From: Candidatus Borrarchaeum weybense
Lineage (GTDB): Archaea; Asgardarchaeota; Sifarchaeia; Borrarchaeales; Borrarchaeaceae
DNA length: 64,000 nucleotides
Direction of reading: 5' to 3'
Assembly: GCA_019057385.1 (NCBI GenBank)
Contig: JAHQJS010000004.1
Span: forward strand, 1,201,068 to 1,265,067
The stretch's first letter is position 1, and each line of letters begins with the position of its first letter. Below the pieces are notes generated by a model. It saw nothing but the letters and a program-made list of their open reading frames with translations, was not told the DNA's origin and made no database searches. Positions 2,106-14,369 of this stretch are shown here, piece after piece. The position numbers and the translations under genes were made by a program.

Positions 2106-4400
2106 TTACAATAACCGAAGAAGTTCTTCCAGTATTAATAATGCGCCTTTTTTATCAAGAGGTTCATTGTTATTGCCACACTTAGGAGACATAATACATG
2201 CAGGACACCCATCCTCACATTCACAATCACTTATCATTTCATATGTAGTCTGCAAGAATCCTGTATCTAATAACTTATAGATTTTTTCAGCAATGCCAAT
2301 CCCAAATTCGTAACCGTCGTAAATGAAAATAGCAGCTTTCTTTTCATCTTCGTGATATGGACTAGAGACACCACCTATGTCCCATCTGTCGCATAACGCG
2401 TACATGGGTGCCATTGCAATCATGGCATGCTCACAAGCATGAATAGCCCCCTCAAAATCATACCCACTCTCGGCTACTTTCTGTTGAATCCATTCTGGAA
2501 GTGTGAAATAAACGGCAACTGTCTGAAACTTCAATGGAGGTAGATCAATAGGTCGCCTCCCGATTATGACATCATAACGCTTTATCACATAAGAATGATA
2601 GAATTCAGTGACTTCTACATCAGCAACTTTCAATTCGAAGCCTAAACTAATTTCCTTTTCTTCTGTGATTTTCAGTATTTGAATATCTGTTTCTTCTAAC
2701 GGATTTGTATGAAGTTCAACATCTTCTTTTCTAACCGACGCAATCATTTTTTCGAGATCAAGGTTCTCTACGACATAGGTTTCTCCCTGATGAAGTAAGA
2801 CTGCACCTTTATAGGCCTCTCTATAAGCCTTTGGTAAATCCATTGTTTCAAGCAATTTACCATTATAATGAACGTAAACCATCTTATTTGAGATATTGTT
2901 TATGTTAACTACCTCAGTAGCACGCATCTTACCTGAATAGACATATCCCCTCGGAGTCTGCGTGATCAATTTGTGACGTTGCAAAGCATCTAATGATTCT
3001 TCAAATTTCAAACCGAAATACTTGTCATCTTCTAATTTGGCAATTGGAAGTTCAGCGGAAGCGCACATTAAATGACCAAGCACAACATATGGATTTTTTA
3101 AATCAATTACAGCATGTTCTGGTGAACTTCCAAAAAATTTTTCTGGATGTTTCATAAAGTATTGATCAAGAGGGTTTGAAAACGGTACTAAAATTGCCAA
3201 TGAATCATCCATTCCTCTTCCTGACCGTCCGGCTTGTTGCCATGTTGAAATTATAGTTCCTGGATACCCAGAGATAATAACGGCATCAAGCGAACCAACG
3301 TCGATTCCAACTTCGAGAGCAGTTGTTGAAGTCACACCTAGTAATTCCTTATTTTTCAAGCGTTGCTCAATATCTCTTCTTTCCTCTGGAAGGTATCCTG
3401 CCCGATAAGGACTTATTCGATCTGCTAAGAACTCACTAGCTAGATCTTCAGATAGAGCCTCTCTTGTCCACCTTGCAATTAATTCAGCCATTTGACGGGA
3501 AATTGTAAAGCACAGAGTCTGGATACTGCTTTTAACACTTTCAGTAAGTAAAAACATAGTTTCTTGGTGAGTTGAGCGTCTTATGCATTTAGCCTCATCG
3601 CTATAGGGAGGATTCCAAAAAACAAAGAACTTTCTTCCTCGGGATGATCCGTCTTCTGAAATAACTACACATTTTTTCCCGGTAAGATTAAAAGCTTGTT
3701 CTTCAGGATTCGCTATAGTAGCGCTAGAGAGAATAAACTGTGGAGATGAGCCATAATAATCACATATCCGAAGAAGTCTTCGAAATAGGAAGGCGCAATT
3801 AGCACCGAAAACACCTCGATAAGTATGAGCCTCATCAATCACGATAAATTTCAATCCCTGAAAGAATTTCTTCCATTTTGAATGCCAAGGAAGATATTGA
3901 TGTATCGCATATGGATTGCTTAAGATCATCCTTGATTTTTGTCTAATATTGGGACGTGCATGGGATGGTGTATCACCATCGTAAACACTTGCTTTTGTTT
4001 CTATGCTAGTTTCACTTTCAAATTGTGATAAGATCATTAGTTGATCATTAGAAAGAGCTTTTGTTGGATACAAAAATAATGCTGTAGAATTGGCATTTTT
4101 CCAAAGTTCTTCAAAGATTGATAGAGTATATGCTAAGGTTTTTCCGCTAGCTGTTGGTGTCGTAATTATTATATTATTTCCTCTTCGAATTTCATTTATC
4201 GCTTCTGCTTGGTGAATGTAAAGTTGCATGCTTCTTTTGTTGAGAAAACTTTGAAGAGGCAAGCCGAGTGGAAAATCGAGTGATCCATACTTTGGTTCTT
4301 TTTTTGGAAGTGTTTCTGTATGTACAATTTGTCCTTCATAATCTGAGGTTTCCTTTAATCCTCTAAGAAATATCTCAATTGAACTCATCATAAATTTCAC
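2106..4400 (-). CDS. DEAD/DEAH helicase with C-terminal DUF1998 Zn domain (MrfA/YprA/Hrq1-like)
   Basis: TPTASGKT, DEAH, SAT, QQAGRSGR, C-terminal CECEDGCPACIMSPKC. Confidence 0.92.
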   Translation of the reverse strand: MKFMMSSIEIFLRGLKETSDYEGQIVHTETLPKKEPKYGSLDFPLGLPLQSFLNKRSMQLYIHQAEAINEIRRGNNIIITTPTASGKTLAYTLSIFEELWKNANSTALFLYPTKALSNDQLMILSQFESETSIETKASVYDGDTPSHARPNIRQKSRMILSNPYAIHQYLPWHSKWKKFFQGLKFIVIDEAHTYRGVFGANCAFLFRRLLRICDYYGSSPQFILSSATIANPEEQAFNLTGKKCVVISEDGSSRGRKFFVFWNPPYSDEAKCIRRSTHQETMFLLTESVKSSIQTLCFTISRQMAELIARWTREALSEDLASEFLADRISPYRAGYLPEERRDIEQRLKNKELLGVTSTTALEVGIDVGSLDAVIISGYPGTIISTWQQAGRSGRGMDDSLAILVPFSNPLDQYFMKHPEKFFGSSPEHAVIDLKNPYVVLGHLMCASAELPIAKLEDDKYFGLKFEESLDALQRHKLITQTPRGYVYSGKMRATEVVNINNISNKMVYVHYNGKLLETMDLPKAYREAYKGAVLLHQGETYVVENLDLEKMIASVRKEDVELHTNPLEETDIQILKITEEKEISLGFELKVADVEVTEFYHSYVIKRYDVIIGRRPIDLPPLKFQTVAVYFTLPEWIQQKVAESGYDFEGAIHACEHAMIAMAPMYALCDRWDIGGVSSPYHEDEKKAAIFIYDGYEFGIGIAEKIYKLLDTGFLQTTYEMISDCECEDGCPACIMSPKCGNNNEPLDKKGALLILEELLRLL

Positions 4401-4746: not shown

Positions 4747-7700
4747 TTGCCTAATTGGGTGAAAAACAAGTTGAACGATCACGATAAAACAAAAGAGCAA
4801 CTTATCGAAGAATTAATAGAAATGCGTCAAATTGCTGCTAATTTGAAGACACTTGAAAATATGTATAAACAAACTGAAGAAAAACTTCGAGATTCGGAAG
4901 AGAAATATCATATAATGGTCGAGAATGCCAATGAACCTATCTTTGTAGCACAGGATGGGATAATTAAATTCGCAAATCAGAAGGCTATTGAAGTATTTGG
5001 GTATCAATTAGATGAATTGACTTCAAGACCTTTTGTGGATTTTATTCATCCAGATGATCGAGAGATTGTTATTGAACGTCATATAAAAAGACTCAAAGGT
5101 GCTGAAATTCCCCATGTCTACCCTTTCAGAATTATAAACAAAAACGGAAATGAAATATGGGCCGAAATCAACGTAGTTCTTATCAAATGGGAGGAAAGAC
5201 CTGCTACTTTATTTTCAATAAGAGACATAACCGAACGTAAACATACAGAGGAATTATTGAAAAAATCGGAAGAAAAATACGCAACTATCGTAGAACAGGG
5301 AAACGACGGGATCGCTATTGCTCAGTATGGGATGGTAAAATTTGTAAACAAAAAGTTGCTTGAGCTTTTTGGCTATTCGTTAGAAGAAACACTTGAAAAA
5401 CCATTTCTTGATTTTATTGCTCCAGAATATCGAAAAATAGTTATGGAACAATATAAAAATAGGCTCGCTGGAGAGAATTTTCAAACTAGATACGAATTAG
5501 CAATCAATACAAAAGATGGTAGGAAGATACCCGTTGAAATAAATGCCAGTTTGATTGAATATGAGGGGAGAACCGCAGATTTAGCGATAATACGAGACAT
5601 TAGCGAGCGTAAGCGGTCAGAAAAATCACTAAGAGAATCTGAAGAGAAATGCCGTAAGTTGATCGAGCATTCCCTATATGGAGTATTAATTATACAAGAC
5701 CAGGGTATCGTATTCGCTAATCCAGCATTCGCTAAGATTCTTGGCTATACAATGGAGGAATTGTTAGCTTTTTCGCCAGAAGAAATGAGGATGCTTGTAC
5801 ATTCAGAGGATCGAGCACTCGTTGAAGTGAGGATACGAGATCGCTTTATGGGGGAATCGGTGCCTCAACGCTACTCTTTTCGTATGATCAGGAAGGATGG
5901 CTCAACAAGGTGGCTAGAATCATCTACAAATCTTATCAATTATCTTGGAAGACCTGCTGTACAGGGTATTTTGGTAGATATTACCGAACGCAAACAGGCA
6001 GAAGAATTACTTAGAGACTCCGAGGAAAAATTCAGGCAGCTTGCAGAGCAGTCACCAAACATGATTTTCATTAATAAGAAGAGTAGGATAGTATACGCCA
6101 ATAAGAAATGTGAAGAAGTTTTGGGCTATACACGGGAGGAATTCTATTCACCTGGTTTTGATTTCCTTTGTTTGATTGCCCCAGACTATAGAAACTTGAT
6201 ACTTTCAAGGTTACATACACATATGGATGGCGATGAGATCGCGCCCTATGACTATGCTCTTGTCACCAAAGATGGTAAGAGAATTGAGGCAATAATCACT
6301 AGCAAATTAATAGAATATGATGGAGAGAGGGCGATCCTTGGGATAGTAACTGACATCACTGATCGAAAACGGACTGAGAAAGCGCTGGAGCAGCGGGTGC
6401 GAGAACTGGATCTGCTGGATAAGGCGCGCTCATCCCTAGCTAAAGGTCTAGATCTACCGAAGGTCATCCGTACCGTTGTTGAGGGCATTGTCGAGACGTT
6501 CGGCTATACTCTGGTCAGCCTCTACTTGCGTAAAGGTGATATATTGATACTTCAACATCAGATGGGTTACCACAAAGAAATCTCCGAAATTCCGATAACA
6601 AAGGGGGTCTCTGGCCGCGTTGTTCGTACCGCAGAACCTGTGTTACTCGAAGATGTTCGCACCGATCCCGAGTTCCTAGGGGCTATTGAAAATATCGCCT
6701 CTGAGATCTGCGTTCCGTTGTTCGACCAAAATGAGGTAGTGGGCACTTTAAACGTTGAGAGCAAAGCGGGTAAACACCTCACGGAAGCTGACTTGCGCCT
6801 TATGACAGCTCTGGGCGAATACGTTAGTGTTGCCATCGGAAAAGCCAGACTTTACGATGCAGCGCAACGGGAAATCGCCGAGCGCAAGAAAATAGAGAGT
6901 CAGTTAATTGAATCAGAAAAAAAATATCGTATGTTAATTGATCAGTCGCTCCAAGGTATTACAATTTTACAGGACGGCTTTATTAAGTTCGCTAATCCAG
7001 CATTCGCAGAGATCAGCGGATATACGATTGAGGAACTACTGAATTTTTCACCCGAAGACGCGAGGGCACTTGTGCACTCAGAGGATCGGGAAATTGTGCA
7101 AGAATGGATAAGAGATCGATTTATGGGCAAGCCAAGTTCTTTGCGTTACGATTTTCGAATAACCAGAAAAGATGGGTCGGTGAGCTGGCTGGACGCATCT
7201 GTTACTCTTATTGAATATCAAGGAAAACTCGCTAATCAGGTCACCTTTTTAGATATTACAAAGCGTAAACATGCTGAAGAAGAAATGAGGAAATATACTG
7301 AAAACTTGGAAAAACTCGTTGAAGAGAGGACATCGGAACTCATGGAGTCAGAGGCCCGTTATCGGGGGTTATATGAGTCCTCCATAGATGGCATCGCCTT
7401 CACAAATATGGAGCAAAAGATAGTGGACTGTAATCAGGCCTTCGCGGATATGCTCGGATACACTAAGGAGAAACTGTATCAATTAAGCCTATGGGACATC
7501 ACGCCCAGTAAGTGGATTGATATGAACAAAAAAATCTTTTCTAAAGAAGTGTTTGCGAAGGGTTATTCCGATGAGTACGTAAAAGAATACATCAAGAAGA
7601 ACGGAACAATCGTCCTAATCTCTGCAAGGTCATGGGTCATCAAGGATAAGGAGGGCACACCCACCGGATCATGGGGCATCGTTCGTGATATCACAGAACG

Positions 7701-8427
7701 GAAGAAAGTTGAACAAATGCAGTCACAATTCATCAATGTAGCTGCACACGAACTTCGAACTCCATTAAGCGCATTAAAAGCCCACGTAGATCTCCTTAAG
7801 ATAAAAATTAGTCGAGGTTTTTGGTCACTCCCTGGAGAAGTAAATGAGAAGATAGACATTATAGCACGGAATGCAGGCAGACTTGCTCTTCTTATCAATA
7901 ATCTTCTTGATTTTACTCGCCTTGAAGCCGGCACGATAAGAATGAATATTGAATTAAGCTCACTTGAAAATTTGGCAATTGAAATTGTAAAAGAAGTCAA
8001 TCCATTAGCTAAAAAGCATAAGCATGAGATTAAAATCATAACTCTAAAGTCATTGCCGTTGATTTATTTAGATAAAGACAAGATAAATGTGGTTTTTAAT
8101 AACTTGCTTTCTAACGCGATCAAATATACGCCTAAAGGTGGTAAAATTAACGTCTTGCTAACGGAACTAGATAACAATATCCATATCATGGTGAAAGATA
8201 ACGGTATAGGTATCGCGGAAGAAGATCTTGAAAGTATCTTTCTACCTTTTCACGTAGCTGATGTGAATACTACTAACAGACTTCAAATACAACCTGAGTT
8301 CGAACGAACAGGATTAGGACTGGCTATAACGAAAGAATACGTTAAAATGCATGGCGGCTCAATATGGGTGGAAAGTCAAGTCGGAGAGGGAAGTACTTTC
8401 CATGTGATCCTTCCCAAGAGAAGATAG
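4747..8427 (+). CDS. Multi-sensor histidine kinase (4 PAS, GAF, 2 PAS, HisKA, HATPase)
   Basis: Repeated EEKY...DITERK PAS/PAC units, GAF (SEICVPL), AAHELRTPL, NLLSNAIKY, DNGIGI, GLGL. Confidence 0.93.
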   Translation: MPNWVKNKLNDHDKTKEQLIEELIEMRQIAANLKTLENMYKQTEEKLRDSEEKYHIMVENANEPIFVAQDGIIKFANQKAIEVFGYQLDELTSRPFVDFIHPDDREIVIERHIKRLKGAEIPHVYPFRIINKNGNEIWAEINVVLIKWEERPATLFSIRDITERKHTEELLKKSEEKYATIVEQGNDGIAIAQYGMVKFVNKKLLELFGYSLEETLEKPFLDFIAPEYRKIVMEQYKNRLAGENFQTRYELAINTKDGRKIPVEINASLIEYEGRTADLAIIRDISERKRSEKSLRESEEKCRKLIEHSLYGVLIIQDQGIVFANPAFAKILGYTMEELLAFSPEEMRMLVHSEDRALVEVRIRDRFMGESVPQRYSFRMIRKDGSTRWLESSTNLINYLGRPAVQGILVDITERKQAEELLRDSEEKFRQLAEQSPNMIFINKKSRIVYANKKCEEVLGYTREEFYSPGFDFLCLIAPDYRNLILSRLHTHMDGDEIAPYDYALVTKDGKRIEAIITSKLIEYDGERAILGIVTDITDRKRTEKALEQRVRELDLLDKARSSLAKGLDLPKVIRTVVEGIVETFGYTLVSLYLRKGDILILQHQMGYHKEISEIPITKGVSGRVVRTAEPVLLEDVRTDPEFLGAIENIASEICVPLFDQNEVVGTLNVESKAGKHLTEADLRLMTALGEYVSVAIGKARLYDAAQREIAERKKIESQLIESEKKYRMLIDQSLQGITILQDGFIKFANPAFAEISGYTIEELLNFSPEDARALVHSEDREIVQEWIRDRFMGKPSSLRYDFRITRKDGSVSWLDASVTLIEYQGKLANQVTFLDITKRKHAEEEMRKYTENLEKLVEERTSELMESEARYRGLYESSIDGIAFTNMEQKIVDCNQAFADMLGYTKEKLYQLSLWDITPSKWIDMNKKIFSKEVFAKGYSDEYVKEYIKKNGTIVLISARSWVIKDKEGTPTGSWGIVRDITERKKVEQMQSQFINVAAHELRTPLSALKAHVDLLKIKISRGFWSLPGEVNEKIDIIARNAGRLALLINNLLDFTRLEAGTIRMNIELSSLENLAIEIVKEVNPLAKKHKHEIKIITLKSLPLIYLDKDKINVVFNNLLSNAIKYTPKGGKINVLLTELDNNIHIMVKDNGIGIAEEDLESIFLPFHVADVNTTNRLQIQPEFERTGLGLAITKEYVKMHGGSIWVESQVGEGSTFHVILPKRR

Positions 8428-8560: not shown

Positions 8561-9052
8561 GTGAACACATTAGTCATAGCAACATGCGTTAAAGAGAAAC
8601 GAAAGGGAAGTCATAAAGCTAAAGATCTCTATATTTCGGATCTATTCAAAAAGATGAGAAAATATGTTGAAACGTATAATTATGACTGGAGAATTATTTC
8701 TGCAAAACATGGATTGATTAATCCAGAAAAAGTGATTGATTCCTATGAGGATGAATCACTAGATCAATTTAAATTACTTCAAGGAAAACAAACTGAAAAC
8801 TTAAGGGCAAAAAAAGAAACATTGAGAAATATAATTGACGAACAGTTGAGACCAGTTCTAACAAACTATGAGCGAATAATTTTAATGTGCGGAAAGCAGT
8901 ACAGAGACGTTATATTACCATTACTTGAGGAAAAAGAGGTTATAAACTATTTTAAGGGAACAAAAGGAATAGGTGAAATTAAGCAAAAACTCAGTAGTGA
9001 TATCGCCAAGAAAAAACAGCTCCCTCTCGATGAATATCTCACCGCCGCATAA
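8561..9052 (+). CDS. DUF6884 (YaaA-related) family protein
   Basis: IATCVKEK...AKDLYISDLF...WRIISAKHGLI pattern. Confidence 0.75.
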   Translation: MNTLVIATCVKEKRKGSHKAKDLYISDLFKKMRKYVETYNYDWRIISAKHGLINPEKVIDSYEDESLDQFKLLQGKQTENLRAKKETLRNIIDEQLRPVLTNYERIILMCGKQYRDVILPLLEEKEVINYFKGTKGIGEIKQKLSSDIAKKKQLPLDEYLTAA

Positions 9053-9125
9053 GTTAAAAAGTTAAGAGGATAACAGTACACCATATTTTTCGTTTTTAAA
9101 AAATCTATGCGGAGTGGTGTTGTAA

Positions 9126-10343
9126 ATGAAATTCTATTTACCATTCTGGTGGCCTGATGGGATCAATACGCATTTTGACCCCTTCTTAGAAACCGTTCCG
9201 CATAAAGAAAAAGTTCGAATTTGGAATATCTATAATCCTCCACCCTTAGATGGTATCCTTGTTTCGAGAGTAAATGTAGAATCAAAACCTCCCGAAAATG
9301 ATGACATTCATACAGCTTTAGACTTCAAAGGATCCATAATGGGCGATTGTGGGGCGTTTTCCTATATCGACGAAGCAGAACCGCCCTACGATCCTATAGA
9401 CACTCTAGAATTTTATGAAAAATACGGATTTGATATTGGGGTGACCGTTGATCACCTCATTGTTCCTAAATACGATAATGAGAAAGAATATCGACAAGAA
9501 CTGACCATCAAAAACGCAAAAAAGATGTTTGATGTGTGGAAAAACAAAGAAACTAAATTAAAACTACTTGGTGTTGTCCAGGGATGGAATGCTAACTCTT
9601 ATGCAACTGCAGCTCTTGAACTCGCTGAATATGGTTTTGATTACATTGCACTAGGAGGTTTGGTACGCGAACCGACAGAAAACATAAAGAAAATCCTAGA
9701 GATGGTTCATGCCATACTTCAAACAAACTCTCAAGAAAAAGGCGTACAAACAAAAATTCATTTGTTTGGCATTGCACGAGAGTCACTTTTCGCTACGATG
9801 AAACATACAGGAATACACTCTTTCGATAGTGCAGGAAGTCTTCGAAATGCTTGGTTGAGCGCCAAAAAAAATTATTATTTGGATAATGTGCCCTATTGTG
9901 CCATTCGCATCCCCAGGCCAAAAGATCTACGAGGTAAAAAAAAGAAATTTGTAGAAGAGCACGAAATTTCGAAAGACCTTTTGGTTAAATTGGAAAAAAA
10001 AGCGTTGGCAAACATCCGAGCGTTTCAAAAGCAAGAAATTACTCTTGATGAAGTACTGACAGCATTAAAAGAATATACCTCTGTTTTCACCCCTCCTAAG
10101 CAAACAGATCAAATCATCAACGAGTATCAACGGACACTCAATGCTAGACCATGGGAGTTGTGTGACTGCTCACTTTGTAAAAAGATAGGGATTGACATAA
10201 TTTTCTTCAGAATGCACGAAAGGAATATGCGACGCGGGTTTCATAATGTCTACGACTTTTATAATCACTTCAAAAAGTGGGAACAAAACTATTTACCATC
10301 TAAGAAAAACGAAAAGGAAAACCAACAATTGAAGTTAGTTTAG
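9126..10343 (+). CDS. dpdA: DpdA-like 7-deazaguanine transglycosylase (TGT fold)
   Basis: DGILVS, GDCGAFSY, VTVDHLI, VQGW, IALGGL, HLFG, SFDS, RPWELCDCSLC...RRGFHN; the GDCGAF and RRGFHN variants resemble DpdA rather than tRNA TGT/ArcTGT. Confidence 0.78.
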   Translation: MKFYLPFWWPDGINTHFDPFLETVPHKEKVRIWNIYNPPPLDGILVSRVNVESKPPENDDIHTALDFKGSIMGDCGAFSYIDEAEPPYDPIDTLEFYEKYGFDIGVTVDHLIVPKYDNEKEYRQELTIKNAKKMFDVWKNKETKLKLLGVVQGWNANSYATAALELAEYGFDYIALGGLVREPTENIKKILEMVHAILQTNSQEKGVQTKIHLFGIARESLFATMKHTGIHSFDSAGSLRNAWLSAKKNYYLDNVPYCAIRIPRPKDLRGKKKKFVEEHEISKDLLVKLEKKALANIRAFQKQEITLDEVLTALKEYTSVFTPPKQTDQIINEYQRTLNARPWELCDCSLCKKIGIDIIFFRMHERNMRRGFHNVYDFYNHFKKWEQNYLPSKKNEKENQQLKLV

Positions 10344-10370
10344 ACTATTTGTAACAAGCACTAAATTCAA

Positions 10371-11579
10371 TCATATCGCTAAAGAGTCACTCATTAAGTG
10401 CGGAATATTCCCACAGGGACATTGTTTTGTATCCTTTAGTTCTATCCACTTCTTTGTATCACTAGCGTAACGAGGTTTTAGTTTAAAAATCAATACTAAT
10501 TCTTGCCCGGTTGATAAAAGTTGTTTTCCTTCTATCTTAACTACTACCTTGTTCTTTTTTACATCAACTGTCCATTCGAATGGCTCAGCAATCTCGCTAT
10601 ATGATTTGGTTAGATTAATCTCGCCTATTTTTCGCTTATGATCCATTAGAATTTCGCATGATACTGCGCCATTGAATTTGGAAAATTCATAACTAAGTTT
10701 AAGCGCGTCTAAACGCCTAAGTTTTAGCCAATAGTGAAAACATGCTGAAAACTTGTTTTTATTCAGTTTACAAACGTACATTCTCTTTTTATCTTGAATA
10801 TTGATCGTATATGACTCACCTAGTCGTAAGTTGTTATAGTAACTCTTAATAATTTCCGGTGAGACGGTAGCATTTGCGATCGTTAAATCCTTCAATTTAT
10901 GGGTGAAGACATTTGGCTCGTAGGGAAGAGACTCATCAAATTCATTTGTAATCTCAACTTCATAAGGGTCATTAGAAGAAAACAAAGTAACATAAGTGAT
11001 GAAAGGAGCCCTATTTGATAATTTTAAATATTTTCTTCGCTCAAAATAGTCCATTAACCCATCACGTCGAATTTTCCATGTAATATCCTTTGTAAGTAGC
11101 CAATGTATTTGCGTATGATTTGTAAAGAATTCAAAGAGGTCGGAATAACGAGATATCTCATTTTCAGATGCTACTTTACTCTGAAAATCGACAGGAATAT
11201 CCTTTGTAAAATATGAGGAGGGTAGGCTTCGTCCAAAGTACAAAATTCGTTTCTTTATCGTCCAAAAATCAGCAAGAGCCTTTTTTCTCTTCTTCTTTTC
11301 CTTATTGATAAGTTCTAATTGTTCCAGTGCATTTAATGCCCTTCTTACATTAGCTAATGGTTCTTGTAGCTGATCTGCCAAATCATGTGTAAAGAACCCT
11401 TTTTTGTTTTCGAGAAGTCGAGCATATGCTTTGAGGGCAGTATCATTTTTCCAGCCCATTACCTTTCCGAATGCTTCAATTTTATCTTTATTATTCATCA
11501 TATCCTCTGAAAGGATAAATTCGCTTGCAGTAGATTTCGATTCTGAGTTTTTGAGTTTCTTTTTAGGCAATAGACTCAC
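10371..11579 (-). CDS. Protein with N-terminal winged-HTH-like region and unknown C-terminal domain
   Basis: THDLADQLQEPLANVRRALNALEQLELI resembles a wHTH; remainder unrecognised. Confidence 0.55.
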   Translation of the reverse strand: MSLLPKKKLKNSESKSTASEFILSEDMMNNKDKIEAFGKVMGWKNDTALKAYARLLENKKGFFTHDLADQLQEPLANVRRALNALEQLELINKEKKKRKKALADFWTIKKRILYFGRSLPSSYFTKDIPVDFQSKVASENEISRYSDLFEFFTNHTQIHWLLTKDITWKIRRDGLMDYFERRKYLKLSNRAPFITYVTLFSSNDPYEVEITNEFDESLPYEPNVFTHKLKDLTIANATVSPEIIKSYYNNLRLGESYTINIQDKKRMYVCKLNKNKFSACFHYWLKLRRLDALKLSYEFSKFNGAVSCEILMDHKRKIGEINLTKSYSEIAEPFEWTVDVKKNKVVVKIEGKQLLSTGQELVLIFKLKPRYASDTKKWIELKDTKQCPCGNIPHLMSDSLAI

Positions 11580-11935
11580 AGTTCAGTTTTTTTACAATTA
11601 TCTCATTCGTCCTATAAAATTTTTTGTAACAGCTTTTTTATTTCATCAAAACTTCAAACCTTAATCAATACACACAAGAAATAAGCATCCAATATCAAAA
11701 TAAAACACTTAAACAAGTTTTATCCTGGTTATTTTTGCTCCTCAGCGGATTTTTAGTCTTTATATCGATTTAACATTCAAGTACAACTGTGAACCTGTTA
11801 CAATTTCTGTCATTGGAAATCCCTAAATTCGCTGATTGATAAAAAGAGTATAGAGCATTAAATTCCTGTTTTGAGTACATTTCCGACAAAAACTAGTATA
11901 TTTGAAAATAAGAGGCATATCTAAGGAGGAATTCC

Positions 11936-12493
11936 ATGGAAGAAATGGATGCAAAGCACATGAACGAACAAGATAGTAAGATGAAGATCTTCGCGGATAG
12001 TAAGGAAGCTGCGTTAACCGCGATAATGGCAGCGTTATATGCTGTTCTTACATGGGTTGTAGCCCCGATTGCTTATGGTCCAATACAATTTCGAGTGAGT
12101 GAAGGATTAAAGGGATCTGTAATTAAAAAGAAGGTTCTTATTATTAGCTTTATTATTGGGAATGCGTTATCCAATATATTTAGCCCCCAGGCAGGTATTT
12201 GGGAATTTCTCTGGATGCCCTTTTGGAACCTCATCGGTGGTGGATCATGTTATCTCATTGCCAATAAACTTACTTACAACTTTAATTACAAAGATGGAGA
12301 ATACAACCTATTCTATTTTGTTGGTGCTTTCGTGTATGCGTTCTGCATAGCATTCGCTGTAGCATTCATGCTCGCAATTCTCTTTGCCCTTCCCTTTTGG
12401 ATCCTACTTCCAGTACTTCTTCTACCAGAAGCCATACTGATCGTCGGTCTTACACCTGTAATGACTCGTATTATGAATGAAATAGAGTGGTAA
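11936..12493 (+). CDS. queT: QueT family queuosine-precursor transporter (ECF S component)
   Basis: AIMAALYAVLT...PIAYGPIQFRVSE signature; hydrophobic; SD AGGAGG. Confidence 0.88.
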   Translation: MEEMDAKHMNEQDSKMKIFADSKEAALTAIMAALYAVLTWVVAPIAYGPIQFRVSEGLKGSVIKKKVLIISFIIGNALSNIFSPQAGIWEFLWMPFWNLIGGGSCYLIANKLTYNFNYKDGEYNLFYFVGAFVYAFCIAFAVAFMLAILFALPFWILLPVLLLPEAILIVGLTPVMTRIMNEIEW

Positions 12494-12543: not shown

Positions 12544-12792
12544 TTACTTGAAAAGCCAATCTTCTCTTTTCTTTTTCATATGAGTCTCCAAGACAGTCTT
12601 TGTATGAATGTCTCCTACTGTTTCAAAAACCATGTGTGACTGAAGGGGTTTTTTTCTAGCTGGTTCAAATCCCTGAACTGGGCACAGTTCTATTGGTGTT
12701 TTAGCTAGAACTTTATGTTCAAAACAATCGCCTTTGACTTCATCTACTGGTTTGTAGTATTTACAATCCCTACAAATGAACTCTTCACGCAT
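12544..12792 (-). CDS. Small Cys-rich protein resembling glycyl-radical enzyme small FeS subunits (BssC/AssC/HpdC-like)
   Basis: CRDCKYYKPVDEVKGDC...CP four-Cys pattern; the original SD (GGAGAGGAAGGGAAATG) lies beyond the insertion at 13125-13142. Confidence 0.5.
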   Translation of the reverse strand: MREEFICRDCKYYKPVDEVKGDCFEHKVLAKTPIELCPVQGFEPARKKPLQSHMVFETVGDIHTKTVLETHMKKKREDWLFK

Positions 12793-13134
12793 TTCCCTTA
12801 GGGAAGCGCCTGCCCTTTAGGGTGGGGAAGAATTGAGGGTGTTTTTCACTTTTATTAGGGCCTCTCCACTTTTAAATACGTGTTCTGAGATAGAGGTACG
12901 TGGTCTAAAGGCACACCTCTCATAGAAGTGGAAATGGTTAATGACCTCAAGGATGAGGAGCAGTAAACTGGTATAGCCCGACTCTATATGAGGATTACTG
13001 GGCTGGGCTGCGGTAAACACGCCCATGTGTTAGCGTGCGATGAGGTTGAAACTCTTTTGCAAAGAAGAGGACTGAGACCAAGCACAGCTAAAAGCCTCAC
13101 TGCTTTAGCGTGAGGTAGTTTACGCATTTCCCTT
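12787..13134. repeat. 13-bp direct repeat ACGCATTTCCCTT at both junctions of the element
   Basis: Exact copies at 12787-12799 and 13122-13134. Confidence 0.95.
12789..13123 (+). mobile_element. Non-autonomous IS200/IS605-type element carrying a TnpB-type omegaRNA only
   Basis: Left hairpin CCTGCCCTTTAGGGTGGGG-AAGAATTG; right end AAGCCTCACTGCTTTAGCGTGAGGTAGTTTAC; internal GGGCTGCGGTAAACACGCCC; TATA TTTAAATA 12871-12878; no credible protein. Confidence 0.8.
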
Positions 13135-13322
13135 CCTCTCCTTTTATCAAATGAAATCGGAATCTTTCACAACGTCATTATATCGATTTATTCATGCAAG
13201 ATTAGTTGTTATTGTATCACTATAATATATTTTCATGATATAAAATATTTTGTATGAGTTTTTTGACGAAAACTATTAATCCTTAAAACAATTAAGATAA
13301 TGTTCTAAAATGGTCTTAGGAG

Positions 13323-14369
13323 GTGAATCTATTAGTAGGATCTTACAGGCTGACTAAAGCAGTAAGGGTTCATGGTTGATCCTGTAAGTTGCCCCAAGCA
13401 GACCTAGAAAAGTTACTAGAGAGCATAGAAGTCTATCTACCCGAAGGTTCAGTTAAAGAGAAAATGTTAGCAGGAGCAGGAGATGACGCCGCAGTAATAC
13501 AGATTAGAGATGATCTAGCACTTATTGAAACTGTAGATTTTTTCACACCAAATATTGACGAGCCAATGATTCAAGGAGAAATCTCTGCATGTAATACAAC
13601 TAATGACATTTATGCGATGGGCGCTGTAGACATTCTTAGTGTACTAGTTGTTATGGGTGCACCAACAAATATGCCTTTTGAAATCTCTCGAGATCTTTTA
13701 AAGGGATTTAAAAATTTCTGTGAACGTCTAGGAACACACATTGTCGGCGGACATACTATAATAAATCCATGGCCTTTCATTGGTGGTTGCGCACTAGGTT
13801 TGGCGCACCCAAATAGCGTTGTCTATAATCGCGGTGCAAAAGTTGGAGACATTCTTCTCTTAACAAAACCTTTAGGAACGCAACCTGCGATGGCAGCATA
13901 TCGTTTACTCAAAGAAGAACAACAATTAATTGATTTATCTGAATATTTACCCACTAAAGTAATTGATCGTGCAATACAAAAAGCAATTGAGATAATGACA
14001 ACAACAAACAGGCCAATAGCAAAAATTATGCAGGAAATCAAGGTTAATGCCGCAACGGATGTAACCGGCTTTGGATTGACTGGGCATGCACGTGAAGTAG
14101 CAACACAAAGCAAGGTAAATATTGTGATTGATACTATGCCGATCATAAAAGGAACTAATATCCTTTCTGATCAACTAGGCTATTCATTAATGGAGGGTAC
14201 ATCTGCAGAGACTGCTGGAGGAATGTTACTCTCGTTATCACGTGATAATGTTGATCTATTCAAAGAAAAACTAATAGAAAGAGGAATAAAATCCTTTGAA
14301 ATAGGGCATGTTAAGGAGGGCAGCGGACAGGTGAATATTGTGCCTGATATAAGAATTATTGAAGTTTAG
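13323..14369 (+). CDS. selD: Selenophosphate synthetase, selenoprotein (TGA=Sec at 13377-13379)
   Basis: In-frame extension upstream of the track ORF reads YRLTKAVRVHG-U-SCKLP, the SelD catalytic Cys/Sec loop; GDDAAV, TVDFFTP, ATDVTGFGLTGH, AETAGGML. Confidence 0.93.

Follow-up and report, generated by a model that had tools for sequence, protein, structure and literature searches.

In the Dpd system of Salmonella enterica serovar Montevideo (PDB 7UI4; PMC10164549), guanine in DNA is exchanged for 7-cyano-7-deazaguanine (preQ0), and the resulting deoxynucleoside (dPreQ0) is turned into dADG, the amide 2'-deoxy-7-amido-7-deazaguanosine. The exchange is the task of the transglycosylase DpdA, which requires the ATPase DpdB in vitro. 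The conversion to dADG is that of DpdC, which acts independently of DpdA and DpdB and is dispensable for insertion, and the restriction genes dpdD-K complete the system. Measurements of such bases have until now come from bacteria that possess full Dpd islands, from phages and from archaeal viruses, and we found no report of them in cellular archaeal DNA in the literature searched. Here, we analyse a stretch of 64,000 nucleotides from the Asgard archaeon Candidatus Borrarchaeum weybense (the window, whose positions we use throughout), in which four neighbouring genes encode a DpdA, a small DUF6884 protein, a QueT-family membrane protein and a 402-residue protein. We propose, with a probability of roughly 60%, that these genes are two units lying side by side in one Asgard genus: a DNA modification pair, made of DpdA and a miniature DpdC and working without DpdB, and a precursor importer under the control of its own regulator.

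Several described systems resemble parts of this locus. Among precursor importers, queT of Firmicutes is controlled by preQ1 riboswitches, and yhhQ is embedded in bacterial dpd clusters, from which a 2016 review took the hint that salvaged preQ0 enters DNA; the same review treats the function of QueT as a prediction awaiting validation (PMC5699537). The idea that salvage feeds Dpd modification, raised in an earlier note on the window, is therefore already in the literature. The likeness of our locus to these cases lies in a precursor importer with dedicated local control beside a precursor consumer, whereas the differences are the archaeal host, a main consumer that is the transglycosylase of tRNA archaeosine synthesis (ArcTGT), and a divergent winged-helix/beta-sandwich protein where no riboswitch is detectable. 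The DUF6884 protein shares a superfamily, and the motifs CxxxK and (L/I)SAxxG, with YaaA (DUF328, PF03883) and Bacillus subtilis YfjM (DUF6884), which are 'cantaloupe-fold' DNA-binding proteins (PMC11701544). These two have been connected with oxidative stress or with the binding of DNA lesions and do not pair with a transglycosylase, whereas the window protein is tied to DpdA. Finally, fused DUF6884-DpdA or DpdA-DUF6884 proteins (Laceyella tengchongensis, cyanobacteria, Bathyarchaeia, Methanosarcina) belong to the same DpdA clade and carry the same DUF6884 domain. Databases name them only 'DpdA' or 'hypothetical', and the archaeal proteins of the present kind are already named 'DpdA' there. 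The fused forms are single island proteins, often beside preQ0 synthesis genes or a Vut_1/YhhQ transporter, while the window has two separate genes, DUF6884 then DpdA, and QueT as the precursor gene.

DpdA and its DUF6884 partner

The gene at 9126-10343 (forward strand) encodes a 405-residue protein that scores 330.3 bits against the NCBIfam DpdA model NF041059 (cut-off 200) and stays far below the cut-offs of the tRNA-guanine transglycosylase (TGT) models, with 60.9 bits for TgtA (cut-off 350) and 38.8 bits for Tgt (cut-off 307). It matches the PADLOC DpdA model at E 2.2e-93 and the Pfam TGT family weakly. Its best solved relative is Salmonella DpdA (E 3.8e-53), while the ArcTGT structure 1IQ8 gives E 3.6e-7. 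The homology to Salmonella DpdA covers the whole catalytic domain, and the C-terminal insertion specific to DpdA, zinc site included, aligns over its full length; PUA and C1-C3 tRNA-binding domains are absent. The alignment to 7UI4, with residue roles taken from the Salmonella structure paper, places D74 at Asp95 (acid/base), D109 at Asp130 (base recognition) and D234 at Asp256 (nucleophile), so that both enzymes have the same three aspartates; it also places G177-G178 at Gly206-207 and F214 at Leu236. They have the same Cys3His zinc site as well (C346, C348, C351 and H373 in the window), with a last spacing of X21 instead of the X22 of Salmonella (CXCX2CX22H). None of these mapped residues varies among 17 diverse relatives (36-78% identity), and His181 of Salmonella DpdA is replaced by Gln152 in the window and in all 17. 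Judged by these matches, the protein is a DpdA and does not group with tRNA TGTs, which bears out what the earlier note had read from its fold, catalytic aspartates and zinc site; its substrate is presumably DNA. The genome encodes, besides DpdA and a canonical ArcTGT, two further short TGT-fold paralogues of 352 and 297 residues (genome G000, contig 3: 126867-127907, L060, and contig 4: 736983-737651, L061).

The DUF6884 protein (8561-9052, forward strand; 163 residues; PF21818, 84.9 bits against a cut-off of 30) is encoded upstream of DpdA in the same orientation, and the gap of only 73 bp makes it probable that the two genes are co-transcribed. DUF6884 is described by Pfam as distantly related to YaaA/PF03883, with conserved CxxxK and LSAxxG, and DpdC itself belongs to DUF328/PF03883, the YaaA family (PMC5699537; PMC12839542). 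In the window protein the two motifs are C9..K13 and I46-S47-A48-K49-H50-G51 (family alignment A4). PADLOC matches it to the model PDC-M57A (1e-20) and to three DpdC models (3e-4 to 6e-4), the match at 3e-4 spanning about 50 residues. Other DUF6884 domains match the DpdC models more closely: a standalone relative reaches 5e-10, fused domains from Laceyella, a Bathyarchaeote and others reach 1e-8 to 4e-11, and the N-terminus of a fusion from another family of the same phylum matches the whole DpdC model at E 7e-43. A profile of 17 DUF6884 domains, leaving out the fusion protein that supplied the DpdC target, was aligned by hhalign to the full DpdC domain with a probability of 98.3% (E 1.2e-14). 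The aligned part spans positions 2-177 of the 325 in DpdC and brings into register the motifs CxxxK, AxDLY, IISAxxGLI, PY(E/D) and LGxxY.

Because of this graded series, the profile alignment and the motifs C9..K13 and ISAxxG, DUF6884 can be identified, at the level of sequence, as the N-terminal core of DpdC. Its 163 residues compare with about 310 in Salmonella DpdC, that is, roughly the N-terminal half, and NCBIfam matches no full-length DpdC at the locus. The earlier note had recognised no dpdC and had cast DUF6884 as an accessory. The functional tie to DpdA holds, but the protein is better described as a mini-DpdC than as an accessory of no known kind. Sequence searches of the PDB with it gave nothing meaningful. 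In the part of the literature that we covered, we found no work that equates DUF6884 with the DpdC core, or that describes the DUF6884-DpdA pairing, the fused clade or the family of the 402-residue protein.

The association with DpdA is nearly universal. We surveyed the 80 best species-level loci of this DpdA clade, detecting DUF6884 with a profile built from standalone members and iterated once, and found it fused to DpdA or at most 3 kb away in 72 of them. The fusion is N-terminal in 45 bacterial loci (cyanobacteria, Chloroflexota, Paenibacillus, Laceyella, Planctomycetota, others) and C-terminal in five archaeal ones (Bathyarchaeia, Halobacteriales, Aenigmatarchaeota, Methanosarcina); in 22 loci DUF6884 is a separate gene within 3 kb. 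It was not detected in eight, three of which have a C-terminal extension of similar size. Most homologues that are 36-49% identical to the window DpdA are 540-700 residues long and carry both PF01702 and PF21818. Fusion in either order argues strongly that both activities share one substrate. The predicted complex of the two proteins, both given as alignments, scored 0.01, which speaks neither for nor against binding. Overall, DUF6884 may be read as the catalytic core of DpdC and as the near-obligatory partner of a large DpdA clade that apparently lacks DpdB.

DpdA occurs in 6 of the 61 sampled genomes of the phylum. In a FastTree phylogeny (midpoint-rooted, branch support not considered), the window clade falls among the archaeal C-terminally fused forms, while a second Asgard group, which comprises Heimdallarchaeum and a Promethearchaeote and has DUF6884 divergent from DpdA, lies separately. 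These positions therefore indicate at least two DpdA lineages in Asgard archaea. In the second lineage, which includes a metagenome-assembled genome of Promethearchaeota, a standalone DUF5591 protein directly follows DpdA (L046:8712-11336; L073-L075, ~9159-11770). DUF5591 is the catalytic core of ArcS (PMC10516641), and this adjacency suggests archaeosine-type (deoxyarchaeosine, dG+) rather than dADG marks in the DNA of that lineage. In Candidatus Heimdallarchaeum aukensis, a 394-residue DUF6884-domain protein lies 2.7 kb downstream of DpdA (L081:14069-15253), with an alpha/beta hydrolase and a TPR protein in between.

A predicted precursor importer and its probable regulator

The fourth gene, queT (11936-12493, forward strand), starts 1593 bp after the end of DpdA and encodes a 185-residue membrane protein, a predicted S-component of an energy-coupling factor transporter for 7-deazaguanine precursors. 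Its match to PF06177 (74.8 bits against 33.7) covers 139 of 141 profile positions, and its place beside DpdA is kept within the genus, as the earlier note's reading of a queT neighbour would have it; outside the genus the adjacency has one remnant. It is the only QueT in a genome of 4.18 Mb that also encodes the canonical ArcTGT (529 bits), and of the 61 genomes of the phylum 27 have a QueT, mostly without DpdA. Its primary client is for these reasons probably tRNA archaeosine. A search of the genome by tblastn for the DUF5591/ArcS core gave no match.

A supply link from queT to DpdA is also likely, because about 35 of the 80 clade loci have a precursor-supply gene within 10 kb of DpdA, because Vut_1 directly follows the DUF6884-DpdA fusion in Laceyella, and because a DpdA remnant lies beside queT in another family of the phylum. 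The supply genes are queC/D/E or folE2 in 27 loci, Vut_1/YhhQ in 9 (three overlapping) and QueT in 2, and these counts, obtained with home-made profiles, are lower bounds. The remnant (genome G036, L048:3330-4703) is a 161-residue frame about 320 bp from a divergent queT. Of DpdA it contains just the zinc-binding C-terminus (103 bits, model positions 304-404), and it is either a decayed DpdA or a stand-alone fragment.

Genes resembling those of preQ0 biosynthesis are present in part. No canonical QueC was found in the genome, where the best TIGR00364 match has 41 bits (cut-off 150). On contig 1 there are a QueD-like gene (87 bits against 89) and a QueE-like gene (153 bits, below equivalog cut-offs). 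Between them, 17 and 14 kb away, lies the gene of a 337-residue protein (G000 contig 1, 137 kb; L005:1033-2046, reverse strand) with 56 bits to Pfam QueC, which it matches from profile position 58 on (the C-terminal three quarters) and without the PP-loop part. This protein also weakly matches the Qat defence protein QatC. The earlier note recognised no que biosynthesis genes in the window and called the system salvage-fed, a reading that the QueD-like, QueE-like and partial QueC-like genes on another contig leave plausible rather than proven.

The gene between DpdA and queT (10371-11579, reverse strand) is convergent with DpdA, with which it has no common promoter, and divergent from queT across 356 bp. 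The 402-residue protein has weak helix-turn-helix matches at residues 45-100, all of them sub-threshold (TrmB 16.8 bits against 25.6, Lrs14 23.3 against 90, Sta1 23.1 against 80). We modelled it with AlphaFold (AF2) from 11 aligned members of its family, with a mean confidence (pLDDT) of 81.6; this model replaced a six-sequence fold that was unusable (pLDDT 39). A winged helix at about residues 24-120 is similar to ArsR/SmtB, MarR and Phr, a heat-shock regulator of Pyrococcus (Z ~9-9.7), and about residues 159-374 fold into a beta-sandwich (Z up to 13.0 to known folds) whose look-alikes are the ribophorin I luminal domain, DUF2207, a 'putative nutrient binding protein' of Legionella and the M1-aminopeptidase N-domain. 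The protein thus resembles regulators of the ArsR/SmtB, MarR and Phr types in its N-terminal fold and its divergent target gene. Yet, it scores below every regulator cut-off of Pfam and NCBIfam, so that the likeness is one of fold, and its C-terminal 250 residues are a ribophorin-I/DUF2207-like beta-sandwich not known in those regulators. The model has no nuclease or NTPase features. C270, C280, C387 and several aromatic and charged residues are conserved in the family. Sequence searches of the PDB gave nothing meaningful, a feature search of the ESM Atlas with the C-terminal part gave only unnamed clusters below 0.9, and phmmer found no match among the unknown proteins of related Dpd-like islands.

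This family is very small: it has four clusters in an index of 5.8 billion proteins, and a profile search of 1.84 billion proteins found 19 representatives, eight of them full length. The distant member P0132 (E 1.8e-32) is divergent from queT and P0129 (E 4e-80) from a DUF5591 gene, both in genomes without DpdA. A third, P0130 (L152), is divergent from the gene of a 208-residue polytopic membrane protein of no known family, which matched neither our QueT profile nor Pfam. Since distant members stand beside queT or the ArcS core where DpdA is absent, the family tracks genes of 7-deazaguanine import and processing, and not DpdA. The four genes are hence not the single conserved module that the earlier note had supposed, which also fits the occurrence of QueT mostly without DpdA. 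That note had left open whether the protein is a regulator or a reader of modified DNA. The winged helix is confirmed by the model, and the role of regulator fits better: divergent geometry is typical of local transcription factors, and context and fold together make it most likely that the protein regulates queT.

The region between the two genes (11580-11935) would be the target of such control. It holds a TATA-like block (11611-11622) and the inverted pair TTGTAACAGCTT / AACCTGTTACAA (11624-11635 / 11792-11803; inverted repeat I4, 12 nucleotides, 92% complementary), both conserved in five genomes of the genus with 78-90% protein identity. The pair (sites TTGTAACAG and CTGTTACAA) shows small changes across the genus, and these sites are candidate operators. 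Rfam, preQ1 riboswitches included, gave no match between 8000 and 13500 at E values up to 1. The family is therefore a candidate archaeal protein regulator of 7-deazaguanine import at a locus where no preQ1 riboswitch was detected.

It might be argued that the adjacency is coincidental, that queT and its regulator serve only the archaeosine of ArcTGT, and that DpdA and DUF6884 draw independently on an internal preQ0 pool. This would account for the 27 genomes with QueT against six with DpdA, for the members of the wHTH (winged helix-turn-helix) family beside queT or DUF5591 in genomes that lack DpdA, for the QueD-, QueE- and QueC-like genes elsewhere in the genome, and for the convergence of DpdA with the wHTH gene. 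It accords poorly with the supply genes near about 35 of the 80 DpdA loci, some of them directly adjacent transporters, with the DpdA remnant beside queT in a second lineage, with the failure to find a canonical QueC, and with the retention of the arrangement across the genus. We regard it as unlikely, if far from negligible.

A possible minimal modification pathway

Our preferred reading is that DUF6884 and DpdA, as one unit, modify DNA with a precursor that the other unit, queT and the divergent 402-residue protein, brings into the cell. QueT would import preQ0 or a close relative, which would serve ArcTGT and, within this genus, also DpdA. If it works as its Salmonella homologue does, DpdA would remove the target guanine by the mechanism common to the TGT superfamily, with Asp234 as nucleophile and Asp74 as acid/base, and install preQ0. 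Mini-DpdC would then act on the same DNA and, as its homology to DpdC suggests, most likely hydrate the dPreQ0 nitrile to the amide dADG, with the conserved Cys9 of CxxxK as candidate nucleophile. The expected chemistry, from guanine through dPreQ0 to dADG, would thus be that of the Salmonella system in an archaeal instead of a bacterial host. QueF and nitrilases offer a precedent for a thioimidate on a cysteine, which makes such an intermediate on Cys9 a reasonable, if speculative, route. The wHTH/beta-sandwich protein would set the expression of queT through their common promoter region, in place of the preQ1 riboswitches of bacterial queT, and its beta-sandwich might, to go by context and fold, bind a 7-deazaguanine base as the signal.

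Several observations weigh against this proposal. The wHTH neighbour is found, among the 27 QueT loci of the phylum, in this genus only, and the adjacency of queT and DpdA is confined to the same genus and to the one decayed remnant. One distant member of the wHTH family, P0135, lies in an unrelated context. The QueD-like, QueE-like and partial QueC-like genes may allow de novo synthesis of preQ0. The DNA substrate of DpdA is taken from homology, and Salmonella DpdA needs DpdB in vitro, whereas none was found here in a search that had no positive control. Finally, the window DUF6884 covers only about the first half of DpdC, with which catalysis may have been lost.

These last two points are also the basis of another explanation, in which DUF6884 is no nitrile hydratase but a cofactor that binds DNA, flips bases or handles abasic sites, replaces DpdB, and leaves dPreQ0 as the final mark. 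The retention of the N-terminal half of DpdC alone would suit such a role, and according to the Pfam paper YfjM, itself a member of DUF6884, was recovered on abasic and RNA-base lesions and is modelled flipping a base. DpdB (NF041060) gave no match in the window's own genome or in five genomes with fused DpdA, and fusion in both orders suggests close cooperation with DpdA. The searches for DpdB had no positive control, though. Moreover, the motifs common to DUF6884 and DpdC (CxxxK, ISAxxG, PYE/D) make up the active site proposed by Pfam, and Salmonella DpdC works independently of DpdA and DpdB and is unneeded for insertion. We therefore hold this role to be doubtful and keep hydration by mini-DpdC as the preferred one.

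If the proposal is true, DUF6884 and DpdA would define a minimal machinery for writing dADG, and DUF6884 would be a small, tractable enzyme for turning a nitrile into an amide on DNA, an unusual reaction. The chromosomes of Asgard archaea, which among prokaryotes are the closest relatives of eukaryotes, may then carry this mark without an obvious restriction partner. More tentatively, dADG or dPreQ0 could be an orphan epigenetic mark of the chromosomes of these Asgard archaea, and not a label of self in defence, written by a DpdB-independent pair that has no restriction partner, with the wHTH family acting as a 7-deazaguanine sensor that controls import; we consider this unlikely, though worth stating. 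Since the known chemistry would be unchanged, we consider the importance of these findings to be moderate.

Relation to Dpd-like islands

The fused relatives of the window DpdA live in crowded neighbourhoods. These contain folE2-queD-queC-queE or a Vut_1/YhhQ transporter, one or two further TGT paralogues, BrxC/D-like ATPases, PLD nucleases, DpdD, very large DEAD/MZB helicases, HerA-NurA, GmrSD, HNH and small wHTH proteins. Archaeal Dpd-like islands (the metagenome contigs L056:3236-21502 and L057:3619-19739, and L051 and L049) are much richer than the bacterial Dpd model. They have two or three different TGT paralogues, an HxlR-type wHTH protein, preQ0 synthesis genes or Vut_1, Q_salvage (DUF2419) and an OGG/HhH-GPD glycosylase, together with MazG, HEPN, HerA-NurA, GmrSD, and PLD and HNH nucleases.

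The TGT paralogues, ATPases and nucleases of such islands are not found around the window DpdA. Scans of the window with Pfam, NCBIfam and PADLOC revealed no dpdD-K restriction genes among its neighbours, and the only PADLOC matches in the surroundings were generic helicase matches on 2106-4400. Across the genome, tblastn with island proteins recovered nothing but a HerA-NurA pair on another contig, and the NCBIfam search for DpdD, made without a positive control, gave no match. The earlier note had likewise recognised neither dpdB nor restriction genes. By its sequence matches this is not a complete Dpd system (DpdA-K), as it lacks full-length DpdC and the restriction genes of the Salmonella system and DpdB was not found. 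Because island genes are not nearby and genome-wide matches are close to nil, the locus has the look of an orphan version of Dpd-like islands, or of a remnant that comprises the modification part only.

One could still see in it the modification half of a defence system akin to restriction-modification, in which the 402-residue protein, as reader or effector, senses modified or unmodified DNA. Related fused DpdA genes do lie in islands with PLD nucleases, DpdD, large helicases, HerA-NurA, GmrSD and HNH, the PADLOC model matched by DUF6884 is a defence candidate, and some relatives have a DEAD/MZB helicase directly upstream of DUF6884. This is improbable, given that the model of the 402-residue protein has no nuclease or NTPase fold, that the protein has no PADLOC match, that its homologues occur without DpdA, and that the genome search with island proteins recovered only the distant HerA-NurA pair. 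Least likely of all is that the window DpdA acts on tRNA or another RNA, as Gln152 might suggest since tRNA TGTs carry Gln at the position of Salmonella His181, because the protein scores far above the DpdA cut-off and far below those of TgtA and Tgt, aligns in the DpdA-specific insertion and zinc site without tRNA-binding domains, has a partner homologous to an enzyme that acts on DNA, and coexists with a canonical ArcTGT.

Genomic setting

The genome consists of 8 contigs and is 100% complete by markers. The coordinates, co-orientation, distance and divergence of the four reading frames are as first described. Their order (DUF6884, DpdA, 402-residue gene, queT) is retained in every relative with a DpdA 74-90% identical whose contig reaches far enough, so that the arrangement is syntenic within the genus, while the adjacency of queT and DpdA ends there apart from the remnant. 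The closest named relatives by DpdA are metagenome-assembled genomes of Candidatus Borrarchaeum yapensis (90%) and Candidatus Sifarchaeum marinoarchaea (78%), and another, 'Promethearchaeota archaeon', has 83%. In two genomes of the same genus (G001 and G002, 76-77% complete) the flanks are absent too, and the matches are repeated elements and PAS repeats only.

Pfam and NCBIfam scans identify the neighbours of the four genes as a histidine kinase, XerA and SelD. A mobile-element origin was considered and rejected: the neighbouring recombinase is a XerA equivalog (253.6 bits against 220) that keeps its position in relatives, and nothing stands out in the GC content. The gene after it is selD, whose position is also conserved in relatives.

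The upstream side varies among relatives, and in some of them a DEAD/MZB helicase is directly adjacent to the pair. A large PAS histidine kinase intervenes upstream of DUF6884 in Borrarchaeum and in the window, where it lies at 4747-8427 and has 1226 residues, six PAS domains and a GAF domain. In the window it separates DUF6884 from a helicase of the MrfA type (2106-4400, reverse strand; DEAD, Helicase_C, WHD_HRQ1 and MZB domains). In Sifarchaeum and in two metagenome relatives, a helicase of this type lies immediately beside DUF6884 and divergent from it, and a link between it and the DpdA pair is possible.

On the downstream side, one relative has a 244-residue radical-SAM gene between queT and selD (L054:7514-8248, corresponding to about 12544-13389 of the window), with the Fer4_12 and Radical_SAM signature seen in QueE. 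No such gene lies there in the window, which has small reading frames instead, and positions 12784-13143 are a repeated protein-less element with copies scattered through related genomes.

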